In this document: one piece after another, positions 52,167-59,317 of the stretch | Layout: every line of letters starts with the position of its first letter | Numbering within the stretch: position 1 is the stretch's first letter | Assembly: GCA_913047625.1 (NCBI GenBank) | Contig: CAJWUJ010000002.1 | Coordinates: forward strand, 85,848 to 149,847 | Length of the DNA stretch: 64,000 bases | Source of the DNA: an uncultured Dehalococcoidia bacterium | Lineage (GTDB): Bacteria; Chloroflexota; Dehalococcoidia; Lucifugimonadales; CAJWUJ01 | Reading direction: 5' to 3' | Made by a program: the position numbers and the translations under genes | Notes under the pieces: model-generated | The model's database searches: none | The model's input: only the letters and a program-made list of their open reading frames with translations | Told to the model about the DNA's origin: nothing

Positions 52167-53954
52167 ATGGACAACATTAGCAGTTCAGTCGTATTAGAAG
52201 TTTTAAAGAATGCCCTTGAAGGTATTGCGGATGGTATGGCTATCACTGTTGTGAGAACCTCAAGATCCTCTGTAGTCCGTAACGGTTTGGATTTTTCTAC
52301 GGCTTTACTAAATGCAGATGGCAAATTAATTGGTCAGGGTATGTGCCAACCTATCCACTTGGGCGGAATGGAGCCAGCTTTACGTTCTATCCTTGATAAA
52401 TACCAGGGAAATATTTCTCCTGGAGATATTTTAATAAATAACGATCCTTACGAAGGCGGAAGTCATCTTCCTGATATCTTTCAATACAAACCTGTTTTTG
52501 TGGGAGAGACATTAATGGGATTTTGTTGTGCGATGACACATCATACTGATATTGGCGGTCGTGTTGCAGGAGGTAATTCTTCAGATAGTACTGAGATCTA
52601 TCAGGAAGGCTTACGGATTCCCCCGTTAAAACTTTATGACCAGGGTAGTCCTAACGAAGCTTTGATGCGCGTCATTGAGAAGGCAGTCAGGGTTCCAGAT
52701 AAAGTTATGGGAGATCTTTTAGGGCAAGTAGCGGCAATGGAATATGGTGCGGAACAATATTTACAACTAGTGAAGAATTACGGTAGAGAAACACTTTTGC
52801 ATTATCAGAATCAGCTGTTGGAGTATACAGAGTCTCTCATGAGGAAAACCATCAGAACTATGCCGGATGGTCAGTGGCAGTTCACTGATTACATTGATGA
52901 TGATGGGTTTTCCAATACGAAGATTGCCATAGTTGTTAGCCTGAGTAAGAAAGATGATCAGATCGTAGTAAATTTTGAAGGAACATCCTCCCAGTGTACG
53001 GGAGCAATACAACCAGTATTTGCGACAACGCAGGGTATGGTGTATTCAGCAGTTAGAAACGTTGTTGCTGCTTTGGGAGTGGACATTCCAAATACGTCTG
53101 GTTATTTTAATCCTATAAAAGTTCTTGCGCCTGAAGGAACGTTTGTTAATCCTAACCTACCAGCACCAGTAGCAGCGCGCAATCTGGGGTGCATTAGAGT
53201 ACATCAGGCTGTGATGGGGGCTTTTGCCCAGATGTTGCCTGAAAGGATTTATGCATGTTCAGGAGGAGCAGAATATCTCTGCACACTTTCTGGTTATGAC
53301 CGGACTGTCATCCCTTGGCAAGCGTGGGTTCAAATTGAAGCTTCTAACGAGTTTGGATCAGGAGGCTATCCTTGGCGAGATGGTATTGATGGAGAGTCTG
53401 CAGGATCAACCAATATTGCGAATATCCCGTCCGAAATCATGGAAGTGGATAATCCAGTAATGATTGAGCAATACGGGATGGTATCGGATATGGAGGGAGC
53501 GGGGAAATATCGTGGATGCGTCGGTATGGTACGGGCTTATAAAATACTGGAAGATAATGTAATGGTACAAATTCGAAGTGATCGTGCCAAATCGTCTTCC
53601 TATGGATTATTTGGTGGGCAAAGTCCTGGGAATACTCAGATTGTTATAGAACGTGGTTCCACTACGGAAGTTAAGGAATCTAAGTTTATTGATAATCTGA
53701 ATACAGGAGATCGGTTAATAGCAGTACTTCCCGGCGGAGGAGGCTGGGGACTACCATATGAAAGAGATATAGACCTGGTGTTAAACGATGTGCGTTTGGG
53801 GAAACTAAGCTTTGAAAGAGCAGAAACTGTTTACGGTGTTGCAATTAAACAGTCTGGATTAGAATTTTGGGTGGACGAACAGTTAACCAATGAGAATAGG
53901 AGATCTATTTGTAATGACTATCTGAGTGACTCATGTCGGGAGAAACAAGCCTGA
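52167..53954 (+). CDS. hyuB: Hydantoinase B/oxoprolinase family protein
   Basis: NDPYEGGSHLPD, HHTDIGG, GGGGWG. Close paralogue of 18634..20361. Confidence 0.9.
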   Translation: MDNISSSVVLEVLKNALEGIADGMAITVVRTSRSSVVRNGLDFSTALLNADGKLIGQGMCQPIHLGGMEPALRSILDKYQGNISPGDILINNDPYEGGSHLPDIFQYKPVFVGETLMGFCCAMTHHTDIGGRVAGGNSSDSTEIYQEGLRIPPLKLYDQGSPNEALMRVIEKAVRVPDKVMGDLLGQVAAMEYGAEQYLQLVKNYGRETLLHYQNQLLEYTESLMRKTIRTMPDGQWQFTDYIDDDGFSNTKIAIVVSLSKKDDQIVVNFEGTSSQCTGAIQPVFATTQGMVYSAVRNVVAALGVDIPNTSGYFNPIKVLAPEGTFVNPNLPAPVAARNLGCIRVHQAVMGAFAQMLPERIYACSGGAEYLCTLSGYDRTVIPWQAWVQIEASNEFGSGGYPWRDGIDGESAGSTNIANIPSEIMEVDNPVMIEQYGMVSDMEGAGKYRGCVGMVRAYKILEDNVMVQIRSDRAKSSSYGLFGGQSPGNTQIVIERGSTTEVKESKFIDNLNTGDRLIAVLPGGGGWGLPYERDIDLVLNDVRLGKLSFERAETVYGVAIKQSGLEFWVDEQLTNENRRSICNDYLSDSCREKQA

Positions 53955-53962
53955 GATAAAAA

Positions 53963-54964
53963 TCATCCCTCTTGAAGTCGAATAGTTGGAAGGTCAATCA
54001 CTGTTAGAAGACCCGCTGGAGCACTAGCCATACTATACAGAGTGTTAGCAACCATTCCTATTGTGGCACTGTCTCCGAAGATACCCCCATGAATTTTCAT
54101 ATCTATTGAGGGAGTGGCGTCAATATAGGTCGCATCAACACTGTCTTCGGCGCCTACATACATATAGAGTTCCAGTGTAATCACTGTTCTCCCATTTCGT
54201 ATCCCGGTTGAAATTTGGTGAACTCCAGCTGCTTCGTCAGGTTGGACTGTGAGATACGGTGTCTGCACCATCTTTTTACTGATGACTGGTTCGATGCTTT
54301 CGGTAATGGTATCCAGTTTCCATCCCAGTCCATAGGCGAGAAGTGCTAGAGACTCTTCCATACCGACATGTCTTATTGACCCGTCAGCAGCCTTGTCTCT
54401 AAATTCTTTTTCACTCAAACCAGCTCCAACTTTTCGTTGCAGAGGCAATCTCCGTTTACCAGCATCTACAATTCGAGTGACGGTAACACTATTGATGCCA
54501 GATACTGGTCCGGTGAGTGCTACAGGAAGAAGATCCATTACGTAGCCAGGATTGACCCCAGTTCCTACGAGAGTTGCATTATGTTTTTTAGCAAGAACGT
54601 GTAGTTTGTCAGCAGCAGTCTTATGTCTGTGCCAGGGGAATGCCATCTCTTCACACGTAGAAACCACGGAAATTCCTGACTCAACAGCGGGTTTGATTTG
54701 GTCGCTAGTGGTCAAAAATGACGAACTTGCTGTGTGAAGTAGAACATCAGCTGGAGTTTGCTGTAGTACCTCTTCAAGAGATGCTTTTACAGGAATACCA
54801 AGAGGTTTGCTCATCTGGGCTACTTTTCCGATATCTTTCCCGACTTTGTCAGGATCAACATCAACAGCCCCTACTACTACCAAGTTTCTTCTTGAGGCAA
54901 GAAGTTTGGTTAACTCAACACCGATGGAACCAAGGCCCATTTGCACTACTCTAATTTGACTCAT
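53963..54964 (-). CDS. DapB-like / 2,4-diaminopentanoate dehydrogenase family NAD(P) oxidoreductase
   Basis: MGLGSIG, VVSTCEE, GTGVNPG, RRLPLQRKVGAG, GDSAT. Confidence 0.8.
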   Translation of the reverse strand: MSQIRVVQMGLGSIGVELTKLLASRRNLVVVGAVDVDPDKVGKDIGKVAQMSKPLGIPVKASLEEVLQQTPADVLLHTASSSFLTTSDQIKPAVESGISVVSTCEEMAFPWHRHKTAADKLHVLAKKHNATLVGTGVNPGYVMDLLPVALTGPVSGINSVTVTRIVDAGKRRLPLQRKVGAGLSEKEFRDKAADGSIRHVGMEESLALLAYGLGWKLDTITESIEPVISKKMVQTPYLTVQPDEAAGVHQISTGIRNGRTVITLELYMYVGAEDSVDATYIDATPSIDMKIHGGIFGDSATIGMVANTLYSMASAPAGLLTVIDLPTIRLQEG

Positions 54965-55084
54965 TATATAGTCCTTTAGAAGTGGTTTTATGTTGGATTA
55001 GCTGATAACACTATCTTAACACATTCAATATCTAAGTGCTAACATCAAGAGGGAGTCCTTGATGTTTTTAGAAGGTTATGGGTA

Positions 55085-55125
55085 ACATCCACTTGAAATT
55101 TGCCTAGCTGTTTTCAAGTGGATGT
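55085..55125 (-). terminator. 14-bp stem-loop just downstream of the RidA gene (terminator-like)
   Basis: ACATCCACTTGAAA-13 nt-TTTCAAGTGGATGT, 9 nt after the stop codon. No clear U-tract. Confidence 0.5.
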
Positions 55126-55134
55126 CTACTCACT

Positions 55135-55518
55135 TTAGTCAGGAATGCATGCAGTGCACATGATTTCTACAAGTAGCTCAGGCCTGTTAAGCATTACTTC
55201 TACCGTTGCTCTGGCGGGCTTATCACTAGTGAAGTACTCATTATAGACTTCGTTGTATCCACCAAGATCCTCTCGTTTGGTAAGGAATGTGGTGACTGTC
55301 AAAACGTTTTCTAGAGATGACCCTGCAGCTTCCAGTATCAACTTGAGCCTTTCAATTGTATAACGGGTTTGTTCTCGAACATCTTTCCCAAGCTGACCTG
55401 AGACTGGGTCTGTTCCAGTGTTGCCTGAGACAAAAACGAGGTTTCCAAATCTTGTTGCATGTGAAAGATTGGCATTAGGTCCGAACTGTTCGACTGTGAT
55501 GGTTTCTTTCTTTGGCAT
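55135..55518 (-). CDS. RidA family protein
   Basis: VFVSG, EAAGSSLENV, PARAT with the catalytic Arg, LVEI. Confidence 0.92.
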   Translation of the reverse strand: MPKKETITVEQFGPNANLSHATRFGNLVFVSGNTGTDPVSGQLGKDVREQTRYTIERLKLILEAAGSSLENVLTVTTFLTKREDLGGYNEVYNEYFTSDKPARATVEVMLNRPELLVEIMCTACIPD

Positions 55519-55646
55519 AGTAATTCCTCCAATAGTAATTAAGACGTGCCCAGTTTATCTTCGAGGAGCTATCGTGTAAATGGTTACTTATTTTGAGATA
55601 TCTTTATTTATATACATGTGGAGCTTTTTGATATTAGTAGCTATGA

Positions 55647-56102
55647 CTATGTGATACGGTTGAGCAAATCTTCAATAGCTTCTGTAGTATTCATGTCCTG
55701 TTCCCATGCTAAGATAAATCCGTTTTCGTCTATAACGACAGCTGGCCTACGCCCTTCTTCCGATTTCTTAACATATCGGTCTCCATCAGGATCGGACATT
55801 TCCAATGCTGCTCCAACCTTTCTTCCGACATCTTGAAGAACTTTAAATGGGAGGTTTTCTTTTTCGACCCATTCTTTGTTGACTTGAGCTCCTTTATCAT
55901 TCATACCGTAGATAACGATATCATGTTGGCTGAATTTATCGGCTAACTCACGGTAGCCGTGTGCCATACGTGTTCAGTTACCACCTCCAGGGCTTGTAAA
56001 AAAGTAAAGCCAAATTTTCTTACCCCGCAGACTGCGGGAGTCGACCTCATTGCCACAACAGTCAGTTAGGGTAAAATCGGGTGCTTTTTCACCTATGTTC
56101 AT
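55647..56102 (-). CDS. Peroxiredoxin/BCP-like (AhpC-TSA) protein, probable selenoprotein with in-frame UGA at codon 43
   Basis: MNIGEKAPDFTLTD...LRGRKFGLYFFTSPGGGN[TGA]TRMAHGYREL...LPFKVLQD...RRPAVVIDENG. One frame throughout; SD GAGGA upstream. Confidence 0.85.
55940..55959 (-). promoter_or_regulatory. Candidate bacterial SECIS hairpin
   Basis: CGGCTA-CCGTGAGT-TAGCCG begins 14 nt after the in-frame UGA (55974-55976). Confidence 0.5.
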
Positions 56103-56167
56103 CACTTGTCCTCACTTTGATAGTTAATTTATTTGGTACCAGCAAAATATGTAAAGGCATTCTGAAA

Positions 56168-58174
56168 CTATAGTGTATCAAATATAGGCGTTTTGCGGGC
56201 TGATGCTATATAACGATCTACGTCTTCTTGAAGCAGGAGACCGTCTTTATGTAGTTCTCTTGCCGCTTGGACTACAGCCTTAATGTATTGATCCTTTGAA
56301 GAAAATCTTTCCTGAACTGATAACCGTGGATCAGCGTTAGCAAGCCGTTCCGCTTTAGATAGGCTAAAAGGAAAGTAGCTTCCTGTAGTGCCGGTAGGTG
56401 CATTTTCAGCATAGCCAGGCAATCGCATATTCCAACCTGTGTAGGTTGCTAGTGCGACTGTTACATCAGGAGTGCGAATCCCAGCTATCTCGTTCCCATC
56501 GTCATCAACTTGTGAAACATAGATAGGGTATTCCTTATCAAGGAGTTCTATAGGAGGTTCCTGTTCTAGGATGCCTTCCTTGAAGTTAGATCCGTGATCT
56601 TGAAAATGGACTCGGTTGATTAAGAAAGAGCAGAATACCCCCGGTATGGAAGGAAATTTGTCTCTTATTTGGTTAGCCTTGACAGCAGATTCATCGGATA
56701 AAACAGGGACTCTGCTTGAAGGAGGAGAAGTCTCTTTCCGTACCCATTGATCAAGTCTGTCTAGGAGGGCTCGTAGCAGAGGTGTGGAGTTAAGTGGATT
56801 TGGTTTATAACGCGTATGTCCAGCAATTTCAGCTACCAATGGATCGAGGTTTCCTGGTAACGGATCTGCAAAGTGCTGGGAACTCGCGAACAAAAATACA
56901 CGGGCTTTCTCGTTTTCTGGCAGGGCATTGCCATTAAAATCAGTGTGTACGAGAGATCCACGCCTATCCCAATATTCTGAGGATGTTTGAGTATGAATGA
57001 CCAGAGGATCGGTTTCAGGCCGCTTGAGGATTCCATCCTCTATATCACTGAATGGATCCGTGAGTACGGAGTAGGCGAAGGGAAATTGATCTGAAGGGTA
57101 CAGATGTTCTGCGTGCTTCAATGGAAATCTACCTGGCTGGGCGAACCGGTAATTTAAACAGACTCGTCCTCCTCCCGCAACGTGGGGAAAGATTCCGTCG
57201 AAAACTTTTTGCTGGTTGGGTGCTGCATTGTAACCTTGGTAAACGAATTCGCGAAGGAATCTACCACTCTGTGATCGTCCCCAAGCATATGCCCTTTCTA
57301 CTGGAGCATCTTTGCTGTATAGAGGATTGGGGATCTGATTCGCATCCGCTTTTTCTGATTTCAAGAACCAGATGAGATCGCGGACACCAAGGAAACCTAG
57401 TCCTAGCACAGGCGGATTAATGGCAGTATAGATAAGTTCGTAGATCAGTCCTGGTTTAAAACCTGATCGTAGGTAACAATGTTGATCAGAAGGAACAATT
57501 TGCCCATCAGTCTCTTGGTATCCAAATATCCATTCAGCTGGTTTTATTGGGATTCTTTCATCTTCTTCATACTCCCGATACGTTAGGGAAGCACTTGAGG
57601 TGTCCAGAGATGCCGTCGAGTAACTATCGGTATACGAATTGCCACTCAGTGGAAGGCTAAATACGTCTTGGGTATCAACGATGAACTCCGATCGAACTAG
57701 TCCCTTTATAGGTTGACTGTTATGTGAGGGAATCGGAAGGTGCATAGTCAGTCTATGGTCACCAGAGCTAAGATCCCCCTGCCATCCAGACCAGACGATA
57801 GAATATCCTCTCCTCATCAAATAACCATTCCCAGCATGTTCAGCAAGCATAGGTTTATTGCTGTGAACGGCATCGTTCATGAACTGCAGTAACCTTTTAT
57901 TACCTCGGTTGTTAACGTCATATATTAACGTTCCGTTTCCGCGGTCAAGAAAAAGTGGTTTTAGCATATAGAAATCTGTTGAGAATTCCACTAATCCCTC
58001 AGAATTGGTTGGAGCAAGGTTCAAGTCGACGATGGAGGCGTTCGTTGGGTTTTCTGGGTTAACAGAAAATAGAACAGTTCCTGAAATACATTCATACGAC
58101 CCAACGTCTCCAAACAGCGCACCGTTTGCGAAGGGTTCTCTGTTCACTATTTGTAGCCGAATTTGTGTGTCCAT
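56168..58174 (-). CDS. Alpha/beta hydrolase domain protein (Abhydrolase_10-like)
   Basis: YDVNNRG, GRSQSGRFLREF, EYWDRRGSLVHT, DDDGNEIAGIR. Confidence 0.8.
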   Translation of the reverse strand: MDTQIRLQIVNREPFANGALFGDVGSYECISGTVLFSVNPENPTNASIVDLNLAPTNSEGLVEFSTDFYMLKPLFLDRGNGTLIYDVNNRGNKRLLQFMNDAVHSNKPMLAEHAGNGYLMRRGYSIVWSGWQGDLSSGDHRLTMHLPIPSHNSQPIKGLVRSEFIVDTQDVFSLPLSGNSYTDSYSTASLDTSSASLTYREYEEDERIPIKPAEWIFGYQETDGQIVPSDQHCYLRSGFKPGLIYELIYTAINPPVLGLGFLGVRDLIWFLKSEKADANQIPNPLYSKDAPVERAYAWGRSQSGRFLREFVYQGYNAAPNQQKVFDGIFPHVAGGGRVCLNYRFAQPGRFPLKHAEHLYPSDQFPFAYSVLTDPFSDIEDGILKRPETDPLVIHTQTSSEYWDRRGSLVHTDFNGNALPENEKARVFLFASSQHFADPLPGNLDPLVAEIAGHTRYKPNPLNSTPLLRALLDRLDQWVRKETSPPSSRVPVLSDESAVKANQIRDKFPSIPGVFCSFLINRVHFQDHGSNFKEGILEQEPPIELLDKEYPIYVSQVDDDGNEIAGIRTPDVTVALATYTGWNMRLPGYAENAPTGTTGSYFPFSLSKAERLANADPRLSVQERFSSKDQYIKAVVQAARELHKDGLLLQEDVDRYIASARKTPIFDTL

Positions 58175-58243
58175 AGTTGAATGATTTTACTAGAAAATAG
58201 TCGATAAGGGATAGCTATTAATCTGTTTTGTGCCTCATGAGCA

Positions 58244-59317
58244 CTAATTGGATAAGTTTTGTGCCATTGAAAGGAATTTATTTGCTTCGGGTCCTATTCG
58301 TTGTGCCCAATCATCGATGCTACCTTTCAATAGCTGGGTTAGTTCTGCTGCCATTGCTTCAGACAGAGGTGATGGGGAGAAAGTGTTTTTGGACCCGAAA
58401 CGAGTATCACTTCCTTGCTCCATTTGTGTCATCCAGAAATTTCTATTCATTGCAGATAATTCAAGTCCAACTGAGTTTAGAATAGTCATTGTATCGTCGG
58501 GGATAGAAAAATGAGCATCAACATTAAAAACAGACTCAGCGTACCCTCCACAGGCAGGAAGAACAGTGTAATAGGGAGTGATCTCTTGAAAGTCATTTGA
58601 TGCAGCGGCAGAAATGCTAGTAATTGCCGCATCAACCTGTCCATCTTTGAGAGATTGGTAAGTGTCTTCCCAGGGTATTTGAGAAGCTGTTATCCCTAGG
58701 GAAGATAATTGGTTTACCCCAAGGGCTGTATTATGACGAATCTTCATATCGAGAAAGCTTTGAATGTCCGTAAGTGGTTCTTTTGTGAAAATTGCTTGTT
58801 GGGGGTAGGTGAAAGAGCCATAACTAGGATCAATTATAAGTCTGTGGTCATTGTCATATATTTCACTGCGCAACGGTTTAGTCGCGTAAAACATGTCCTC
58901 AGCTTGGTCATATGATGTACACAGTCCCATGAGATGATAGATATTCATTTCCGGAGAATCTAGAGTCAGATACATTGGAACTGTTTCCCACATAGCAAAG
59001 ACTCCTTCTCTAACAAGGTTTATCCCGTGACCTCCGGAATATCCTAGGGTGTCGTAATTTGTGTACGTTATCTGGAAATAGTTAGCAGTGAGTTTTTGGA
59101 GCCGCGCGTTTGCAGCTGAATGATTTTGAGCTATTGGGTGTGTAGCATTGTAGATTCCTCCCCATGTCCATTTTACATTTGCAGGCACATTTTTTTGCTG
59201 AGGTATGGGAATCGGTTGTACAGATATATCCTTGGATTCCGTAGGTGCTCCACATCCAGCCAGTAGTGAATGGAAAATGCAGCAAAACAGAATCAGAAGT
59301 GTGCTGAATTTTTTCAT
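58244..59317 (-). CDS. dctP: TRAP transporter substrate-binding lipoprotein (DctP-like)
   Basis: Lipobox LAGC, MKIR, IPWEDTYQSLKDGQVDA. Confidence 0.75.
   Translation of the reverse strand: MKKFSTLLILFCCIFHSLLAGCGAPTESKDISVQPIPIPQQKNVPANVKWTWGGIYNATHPIAQNHSAANARLQKLTANYFQITYTNYDTLGYSGGHGINLVREGVFAMWETVPMYLTLDSPEMNIYHLMGLCTSYDQAEDMFYATKPLRSEIYDNDHRLIIDPSYGSFTYPQQAIFTKEPLTDIQSFLDMKIRHNTALGVNQLSSLGITASQIPWEDTYQSLKDGQVDAAITSISAAASNDFQEITPYYTVLPACGGYAESVFNVDAHFSIPDDTMTILNSVGLELSAMNRNFWMTQMEQGSDTRFGSKNTFSPSPLSEAMAAELTQLLKGSIDDWAQRIGPEANKFLSMAQNLSN

Follow-up and report, generated by a model that had tools for sequence, protein, structure and literature searches.

Within the 64,000-nucleotide (nt) stretch analysed here (the window; positions 85,848 to 149,847 of contig CAJWUJ010000002.1, from an uncultured Dehalococcoidia bacterium), the minus strand carries a reading frame at 55647..56102 that starts at an ATG at 56102, runs through 151 sense codons to a TAG stop at 55647-55649, and has a TGA at 55974-55976 as its single interruption. 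A Shine-Dalgarno-like GAGGA (56109..56113, minus strand), read from the sequence, lies 6 nt upstream of the ATG, and two overlapping hairpins, A (55944..55966) and B (55940..55959), follow the TGA on the same strand. Standard open reading frame (ORF) calling splits the frame into pieces of 43 and 106 amino acids (aa), of which the latter (55647..55967, minus strand) is the gene-caller product and starts at Met46, three codons past the TGA. Translated with TGA as selenocysteine (Sec, U), the frame very probably encodes one selenoprotein of 151 residues with a BCP/PrxQ-type fold, most likely a 1-Sec thiol peroxidase. An earlier, sequence-only reading of this DNA had proposed that the 106-aa ORF is the C-terminal part of a 151-codon frame preceded by a Shine-Dalgarno sequence; translation and the position of the GAGGA confirm this, and the 106-aa ORF is a truncation artefact.

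The read-through protein matches the Pfam family AhpC-TSA (74.9 bits against a cut-off of 26; 7e-21) and also the Redoxin family. Since the AhpC-TSA match covers residues 3-130, the domain spans the in-frame stop. Comparison with the database protein P0003 shows 35 of 42 residues conserved before the site and 85 of 108 after it. In the codons upstream of the TGA, the residues are conserved and synonymous sites are free, with four codons in use for Gly27 and five for Leu32. The single TGA had been aligned with the peroxidatic Cys of peroxiredoxins (YFFTSPGGGN-U-T versus YFYPKDDTPG-C-T of BCP). Our alignments to BCPs agree and, together with the column of the orthologues, place the putative Sec codon, U43, at the peroxidatic-Cys position.

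We traced this codon through the family. At the DNA level 43 family loci were collected, 39 of them distinct, comprising 32 TGA forms and seven TGT/TGC forms. The TGA falls in the identical column in 32 of 32 distinct TGA-form orthologues, and the seven other distinct homologues carry TGT or TGC in the same column, which settles in favour of a selenoprotein the question of whether close homologues ever have TGA here. When 201 genomes of the order were searched, each of the ten highest-ranking matches, including that from the window's own genome (G000), had exactly one in-frame TGA; among 401 genomes of the class, one TGA was found in 16 of the 18 matches at E <= 1e-25 and none in the other two. 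Proteins deposited in the database reflect the same interruption. Of 76 matches, 36 are 105-107 aa long, and the seven of these that were aligned all begin at the Met three codons past the site. Eight database proteins (P0006-9, P0013, P0014, P0021 and P0034) have Cys at the site. Three full-length entries (P0002, P0003 and P0012) have W, which we infer to be spurious, a product of pipeline translation of TGA under code 4. The conserved TGA, the Cys homologues aligned to it and the suppression of synonymous sites described below together raise the signal above chance.

An assembly error does not explain the TGA. One contig, from DNA run X3, is identical to the window over 55828-56200, and RNA-library contigs, which speak to presence and not to transcription or its level, bridge the TGA with 0 differences (X14) and with six differences, none within 55940-55976 (X15). 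A contig from run X9 covers 56087-56200 only, off the TGA site. A sequencing error masking TGC or TGT, which the sequence-only reading had named as a possible refutation, finds no echo in the independent contigs X3, X14 and X15, all of which show TGA. The X15 contig (55748-56065) is a variant that differs from the window at 55808, 55827, 55829, 55875, 55883 and 55992; neither the TGA nor either hairpin is touched, and the affected codons, read by eye, are a mix of synonymous and conservative changes.

The genome from which the window derives (1.55 Mb, 42% G+C, 91% complete) encodes selA (528 bits), selB (304 bits) and selD (363 bits), all above curated cut-offs, and a tRNA-SeC with anticodon tca; all four of selA, selB, selC and selD, the genes by which the prediction could be checked, are therefore found. 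The selD gene itself has an in-frame TGA. By analogy with the established bacterial mechanism, we consider insertion of Sec at UGA 55974-55976 highly probable: the ribosome would decode this UGA as Sec, and a Sec insertion sequence (SECIS) hairpin about 10 nt downstream, inside the coding sequence, would recruit SelB with Sec-tRNA(Sec). A reading of TGA as a standard amino acid, through a reassigned code (Trp or Gly) or near-cognate read-through, would account for the W in the three database entries, but it is extremely improbable. Release factor 2 (RF2) is present in the genome (468 bits versus a cut-off of 370) and TGA closes 226 of its 956 long open frames (24%), indicating that TGA is an ordinary stop and not generally reassigned. 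Furthermore, homologues carry Cys at the site and never TGG-Trp or GGN-Gly, the site is that of the redox-active residue, and the RNA hairpin constraint that follows the TGA exists in TGA forms only.

This constraint became apparent when the 32 Sec forms were aligned codon by codon: synonymous variation drops sharply at codons 47-52 and nowhere else. Ala47 is written GCT in 20 of 21 cases, Leu48 CTC in 17 of 19, Gly49 GGG in 31 of 32, Tyr50 TAC in 32 of 32 and Glu52 GAG in 21 of 22, whereas three to six codons are in use in the remaining Gly, Ala and Leu columns (entropy 1.3-2.2 bits). GGG stands at codon 49 in none of the seven Cys forms. Codons 47-52 make up an 8-base-pair (bp) hairpin, for example GCUCUCGG-GUA-CCGAGAGC, that starts 10 nt past the UGA. 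This hairpin, A, lies within the minimum free energy (MFE) fold in all 32 Sec forms (-6.4 to -14.1 kcal/mol) and is either weak or missing in the Cys forms (+2.2 to -5.6 kcal/mol). Its cells are paired in 90.7% of cases across the 32-row alignment, compared with 33-49% when the partner is slid, and two of its eight pairs show compensatory change, from C-G to G-C (columns 23/39) and from A-U to U-A or U-G (columns 26/36). The family form, G-GUA-C, located 17 nt from the UGA with 7-8 bp, satisfies every point of the bacterial SECIS (bSECIS) model as set out in the legend to Fig. 2 of PMC13188914: a loop of 3-9 nt, a stem of 4-16 bp, a G in loop positions 1-2, a spacing of 16-37 nt and an MFE <= -7.5. 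Judged from this comparative evidence, the hairpin in codons 47-52 is the predicted family-wide SECIS. Its lack in the nested Cys forms is expected if the hairpin serves Sec decoding, and the family is a clear example of a SECIS inside a coding region, seen as synonymous suppression and lost on reversion to Cys.

The window's own version of this element is unusual. Hairpin A of the window (55944..55966, minus strand; UGGC-A-CACGG, loop CUA, CCGUG-A-GUUA) is in register with the family-wide SECIS, and its core stem, on the minus strand, pairs 55957-55964 with 55946-55953 around a loop at 55954-55956. The window is the sole Sec form with GGC at Gly49 (1 of 32, the remainder having GGG); as a result the loop G is gone, the loop of hairpin A becomes CUA, and hairpin B becomes possible. 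Hairpin B (55940..55959, minus strand) consists of CGGCUA, an 8-nt loop CCGUGAGU and UAGCCG, pairs 55954-55959 with 55940-55945, and starts 14 nt past the UGA. The two hairpins overlap, are mutually exclusive and are about isoenergetic (-8.0 kcal/mol for A in its extended form, -8.3 kcal/mol for B); in both, spacing, stem and energy lie within the limits of the bSECIS model. The loop of hairpin B contains GU, as do the loops of at least four of the genome's five other selenoprotein genes, and that of hairpin A does not. The window pairs His48 CAC with Arg51 CGT, where the rest of the clade pairs Leu CTC with CGA or CGG, revealing that the stem of hairpin A has been preserved in the window's lineage. 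It was hairpin B that the sequence-only reading had offered as the SECIS. The hairpin does exist, but its pairing is missing in the other members when the alignment is read by eye, so that as a SECIS it is conserved in no other member. It may still matter in the window's lineage, and the two hairpins together represent a possible intermediate in SECIS turnover. Genome and metagenome scans found no DNA of the window's sub-lineage (P0002-5, P0010-11), the closest relative having 64% identity, and the genome collection contains no second genome from the family to which G000 belongs.

Several results weigh against Sec decoding. Among the 32 Sec forms, no stem is weaker than that of the window's hairpin A (-6.4 kcal/mol for the core, -8.0 kcal/mol when extended). 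A G at loop position 1 or 2 is missing from both window hairpins; hairpin A would gain one only if its closing G-C pair opened. Folding of 71 nt around the site was no better than shuffles (z = 0.17; 108 of 200 shuffles at least as stable), a value that renders folding energy by itself uninformative. As the rows are related, the compensatory changes stand for a small number of evolutionary events. Finally, all eight of the other TGA-form genomes tested have selB above its cut-off, but so do both of the Cys-form genomes tested, so that its co-occurrence is necessary and not discriminating. An Rfam scan of 55000-57000 returned four chance-level matches, none of them relevant. A weak hairpin without a loop G, a local fold no better than shuffles and the 106-aa piece reported by gene callers would fit a TGA that is a plain stop, in a pseudogene or split gene from which the 42-residue piece, the 106-residue piece or neither is made. 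We regard this explanation as very improbable. The TGA has been kept in 32 distinct orthologues that belong to several families within the class, purifying selection acts at the protein level on the 42 codons before it, and the 106-aa piece lacks the active site and strands beta1-beta3; in addition, the genome has Sec machinery and other selenoprotein genes, and the CAC/CGT pairing keeps the stem of hairpin A in the window's lineage. The sequence-only reading of a hidden selenoprotein with a peroxiredoxin fold is supported by these data, and none of the refutation tests run went against it.

Residue 43 is well placed for redox chemistry. The AlphaFold2 model of the protein (mean predicted local distance difference test, pLDDT, 93.6) has a strand at residues 29-34, the loop FTSPGG and a helix from residue 41, an arrangement that puts Sec43 where peroxiredoxins hold the peroxidatic Cys; in the model this is the first turn of helix alpha2. 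The best Foldseek matches are BCP, Bcp1, Bcp4 and AhpE, with template modelling (TM) scores of about 0.85. The protein thus combines an AhpC-TSA match above the gathering score, the peroxiredoxin (Prx) fold and an equivalent of the catalytic Arg. The latter, R119 (RRPAVVID), aligns to the R of RxxF(V/I)ID in BCPs and is invariant in a 56-row alignment, so the distal Arg is kept, as had been noticed from the sequence; the other BCP hallmarks, GYRD/E and LPF, are also retained.

The immediate surroundings of Sec43 depart from this pattern. Compared with 2ywn, 3drn, 5enu and 20 homologues, the protein does not have Pxxx(T/S)xxC: Thr takes the place of Pro(-7) and Gly that of Thr(-3). The replacement of this motif by a Gly-rich TSPGGGNU, pointed out earlier, can therefore be seen in alignments to BCP structures and to homologues alike. 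The absence of a downstream resolving Cys is equally borne out, as His48 occupies the CxxxxC position in the window; this position is Leu or His in all Sec forms and Cys only in the basal Cys clade. Sec is followed by T-R-M, giving neither a CxxC nor a UxxC motif. The Cys15-Cys16 pair that had also been singled out is present in the window but is not a feature of the family: Cys15 occurs in 13 of 31 Sec forms, with His or Ser in other clades, and Cys16 is confined, among the rows examined, to the window's sub-lineage (the window, P0002 and P0003).

We were interested in the limits of this family and found them to be sharp. Only three of 1.84 billion cluster representatives reach E <= 1e-30; below these, scores fall to about 100 bits where partial family members are listed, and generic peroxiredoxins score about 70 bits or less. 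All members examined carry F-[FY]-T-x-x-G-G-x-N-[C/U]-T and all outsiders examined the canonical Y-P-K-D-x-T-x-G-C-T, with no intermediates; the family motif, T-S-P-G-G-x-N-[U/C]-T, is without the canonical Pro and Thr. The full-length product measures 151-153 aa across the family. Named members are all Dehalococcoidia metagenome-assembled genomes (MAGs), with one named SAR202 cluster. None of the NCBIfam models, including selenoprotein-specific ones, reaches its cut-off for the window protein.

In a maximum-likelihood tree of 50 rows (36 from DNA, nine database proteins and five BCP outgroups; L065, L149 and L155 were left out), the family forms a single clade (100/100). Six of its Cys forms, those with CxxxxC retained, branch outside a 39-row clade (98/93), which is Sec except for one nested Cys subclade. 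At least two Sec/Cys changes are required by the tree, whose root, on a long outgroup branch, is indicative only. The sequence-only proposal of a distinct Sec-dependent redoxin subfamily therefore holds as to distinctness, given the sharp boundary and derived motif, but not as to dependence on Sec, given the Cys-form members and the basal CxxxxC group. As far as sequence comparison allows, we describe the family as a distinct BCP-derived subfamily whose active site is non-canonical. The window's genome also encodes a canonical 2-Cys BCP paralogue (YFYPKDDTPGCTKEAC; G000 C14:275-751), which makes the Sec form an extra, specialised paralogue, an addition and not a replacement.

How might such a protein work? 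As a 1-Sec thiol peroxidase, its selenolate would attack a hydroperoxide to give a selenenic acid, which an external thiol reductant of the thioredoxin or glutaredoxin type would recycle; the high nucleophilicity of Sec would offset the lost Thr. Peroxide reduction is the predicted chemistry, to which we give a slight preference. Three observations tell against it. ResA/TlpA-type thiol-disulfide oxidoreductases are nearly as close in fold (TM 0.72-0.79); the Thr and Pro of the Prx active site are missing, so that peroxidase chemistry is not to be presumed; and a search for a conserved neighbour that might point to the reductant or substrate gave none beyond genus-level synteny, the largest cluster comprising 6 of 36 loci from one group. 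The protein could instead be a real selenoprotein that is not a peroxidase but a ResA/TlpA-like or Prx-like thiol/selenosulfide oxidoreductase, acting on a specific protein or small-molecule disulfide via its single Sec; in this order of bacteria, Cys15 might serve as the partner. The loss of both catalytic residues of PxxxTxxC would be understandable on such a role, ResA chains match almost like BCPs in profile as well as in fold (NCBIfam ResA is among the matches), Cys15 is found in a part of the Sec forms, and peroxide removal is already covered by the genome's canonical BCP. We nonetheless consider this alternative rather unlikely. The T-R-M after Sec leaves no CxxC or UxxC, the BCP hallmarks are kept and the best sequence and fold matches are BCPs, the family roots beside a 2-Cys CxxxxC group typical of BCP, and Cys15, being His or Ser in other clades, is not family-wide.

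A four-step history can be entertained, although we hold all four steps jointly only as a tentative proposal, in which the family would be a mechanistically distinct 1-Sec redoxin derived from a 2-Cys BCP. The resolving Cys would have been lost as the peroxidatic Cys gave way to Sec. The Pro/Thr loop would then be replaced by a Gly-rich one in which an invariant Asn stands beside Sec, so that selenolate, Asn and Arg might act in a glutathione-peroxidase-like manner on a Prx scaffold. Later, one subclade would have reverted to Cys and lost its SECIS. Lastly, the window's lineage may be remodelling its SECIS, from the ancestral GUA hairpin to the overlapping hairpin six bases downstream, a shift that a single synonymous G-to-C change makes possible.

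Other genes of this genome also appear to use Sec. A hairpin-based scan for genes with an in-frame TGA was unspecific, passing 69 of 368 candidates; a second filter reduced these to 57, of which seven were picked by motif, the other 50 lying outside the examined set. In four of the seven examined candidates a Pfam domain spans the TGA: a thioredoxin-fold protein with UxxC (DFULGC; L224:1-495, G000 C1:48755-49252), a TlpA/AhpC-like redoxin with W-U-G-T-C (KWUGTC; L225:1-777, C9:785-1564), an Rdx/SelW protein with CxxU (CVPU; L226:1-291, C1:55319-55612) and a DSBA-like protein (FRUPYV; L227:1-597, C1:174236-174835). The fifth further selenoprotein gene is selD (L228, C16:10823-11896), whose TGA lies N-terminal to its Pfam domains. 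These five genes, all outside the window, likely encode selenoproteins. In at least four of them the apical loop contains GU (AGUAC, GUU, AGUUA, AGUUG); the hairpin of the DSBA-like gene was not parsed by the tool. Two further candidates were unsupported as selenoproteins: L229, an EamA protein whose TGA lies upstream of the domain, and L230, which has no family.

Within the window, the Sec gene is flanked by genes for a hydantoinase B/oxoprolinase (52167-53954, plus strand) and, all on the minus strand, a 2,4-diaminopentanoate-dehydrogenase-like protein (53963-54964), RidA (55135-55518), an Abhydrolase_10 protein of 668 aa (56168-58174) and a DctP-type TRAP solute-binding protein (58244-59317). 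Together they make 52167-59317 a setting of amino-acid or organic-acid catabolism, in which no link to redox chemistry is evident.

Our searches also returned other proteins of related type. Six weaker Prx-like matches in the order's other genomes (28-33% identity) each contain one in-frame TGA (G160:C79:4217-4627, G132:C1:1136835-1137221, G109:C11:21970-22377, G178:C49:13566-13949, G148:C1:1816693-1817076 and G082:C61:34249-34542) and may be a second, different Sec-peroxiredoxin family. A translation-GTPase paralogue at G195:C1:16824-17711, which scores 181 bits with the selB model, below the cut-off, likewise has one in-frame TGA. Five database proteins of 1004-1717 aa (P0085, P0089, P0099, P0101 and P0207) contain four to eight separate Prx-like stretches and look like tandem multi-redoxins.

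These observations bear on annotation, enzymology and ecology. The true product of these genes would be a selenoprotein of 151-153 aa, whereas 36 of the 76 database entries are stumps of 105-107 aa and three have a spurious W at the site. For enzymology, the family provides a natural test of how far selenium substitutes for the Thr and Pro of the Prx active site, in which Sec forms can be set beside matched Cys forms and the 2-Cys sister group. In ecological terms, the protein would be a lineage-specific antioxidant that adds to the selenium demand of abundant marine Dehalococcoidia, which PMC13326102 reports as selenoprotein-rich.

Sec-peroxiredoxins and selenoprotein-rich Dehalococcoidia are already known. 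One Sec-peroxiredoxin for comparison, PrxU of the Eubacterium acidaminophilum type, is an AhpC/Prx1-type peroxiredoxin. It appears as 'Prx, TxxU', with the PxxxTxxU motif kept, in PMC13188914, and the selenoproteome surveys (PMC13188914; PMC2398784) include Sec-containing Prx and Prx-like families (UxxC, UxxS, CxxU, VPGUxxT). PrxU and the window family share the AhpC/TSA fold, Sec at the peroxidatic position and a UGA with downstream SECIS (PMC13188914; PMC2398784). Unlike PrxU, the window family is without PxxxTxxU, and the window protein scores 17.5 bits with the NCBIfam PrxU model NF040737 (cut-off 270); the family is a Prx subfamily other than that of PrxU. Further Prx-type selenoprotein families listed in PMC13188914 are a Prx-like thiol:disulfide oxidoreductase (UxxC/UxxU), cd02970 (UxxS), Prx-SUH (CxxU), VPGUxxT, TUGYCR and WAxxUGC. 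Like the window family, those entries of PMC13188914 are thioredoxin-fold or AhpC-TSA-related and have Sec in a redox motif. The window family differs in its G-G-x-N-U-T-R-[MH], a motif that offers Sec neither a Cys or Ser nor another Sec as partner. The window protein scores 15.6 bits with the TUGYCR model NF053656 (cut-off 100) and 27 with WAxxUGC_long NF041054 (cut-off 300), and the Prx-SUH (NF045827) and VPGUxxT models gave no match at E <= 1. Among the papers listed on selenoproteins or selenocysteine together with SAR202 or Dehalococcoidia, supplements and BSepDB lying outside the search, no account of the motif or subfamily turned up. BSepDB lists Dehalococcoidia MAGs with 46-49 selenoproteins, according to PMC13326102, and these genes may already stand there under 'Prx'.

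Two groups of Cys peroxiredoxins resemble the window family in structure. AhpE of Mycobacterium tuberculosis (1xxu, 4x1u), a 1-Cys Prx, has a similar small one-domain fold (TM 0.82-0.83) with Cys where the window family has Sec. AhpE works with a single redox residue that is recycled by an external thiol, and it carries the canonical Prx active-site motif. The BCP/PrxQ proteins (the E. coli BCP model 9a4d_B, Bcp1 3drn and Bcp4 3hjp of Sulfolobus, 2ywn/4g2e and Burkholderia 5enu) share the fold (TM 0.81-0.85) and match the window protein by sequence profile (E 1e-15 to 1e-20). The window family is distinguished from them by Sec in place of the peroxidatic Cys, by the T-S-P-G-G-x-N-U-T loop, by the loss of the resolving Cys in Sec forms and by a longer segment before the Arg, and the window protein scores 57.5 bits with the BCP equivalog model NF006960, whose cut-off is 140. 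What unites the window family and the BCP/PrxQ proteins is the redox residue at the first turn of alpha2, the retention of GYRD/E, LPF and the catalytic Arg, and, in the basal Cys members of the family, the CxxxxC of atypical 2-Cys BCPs.

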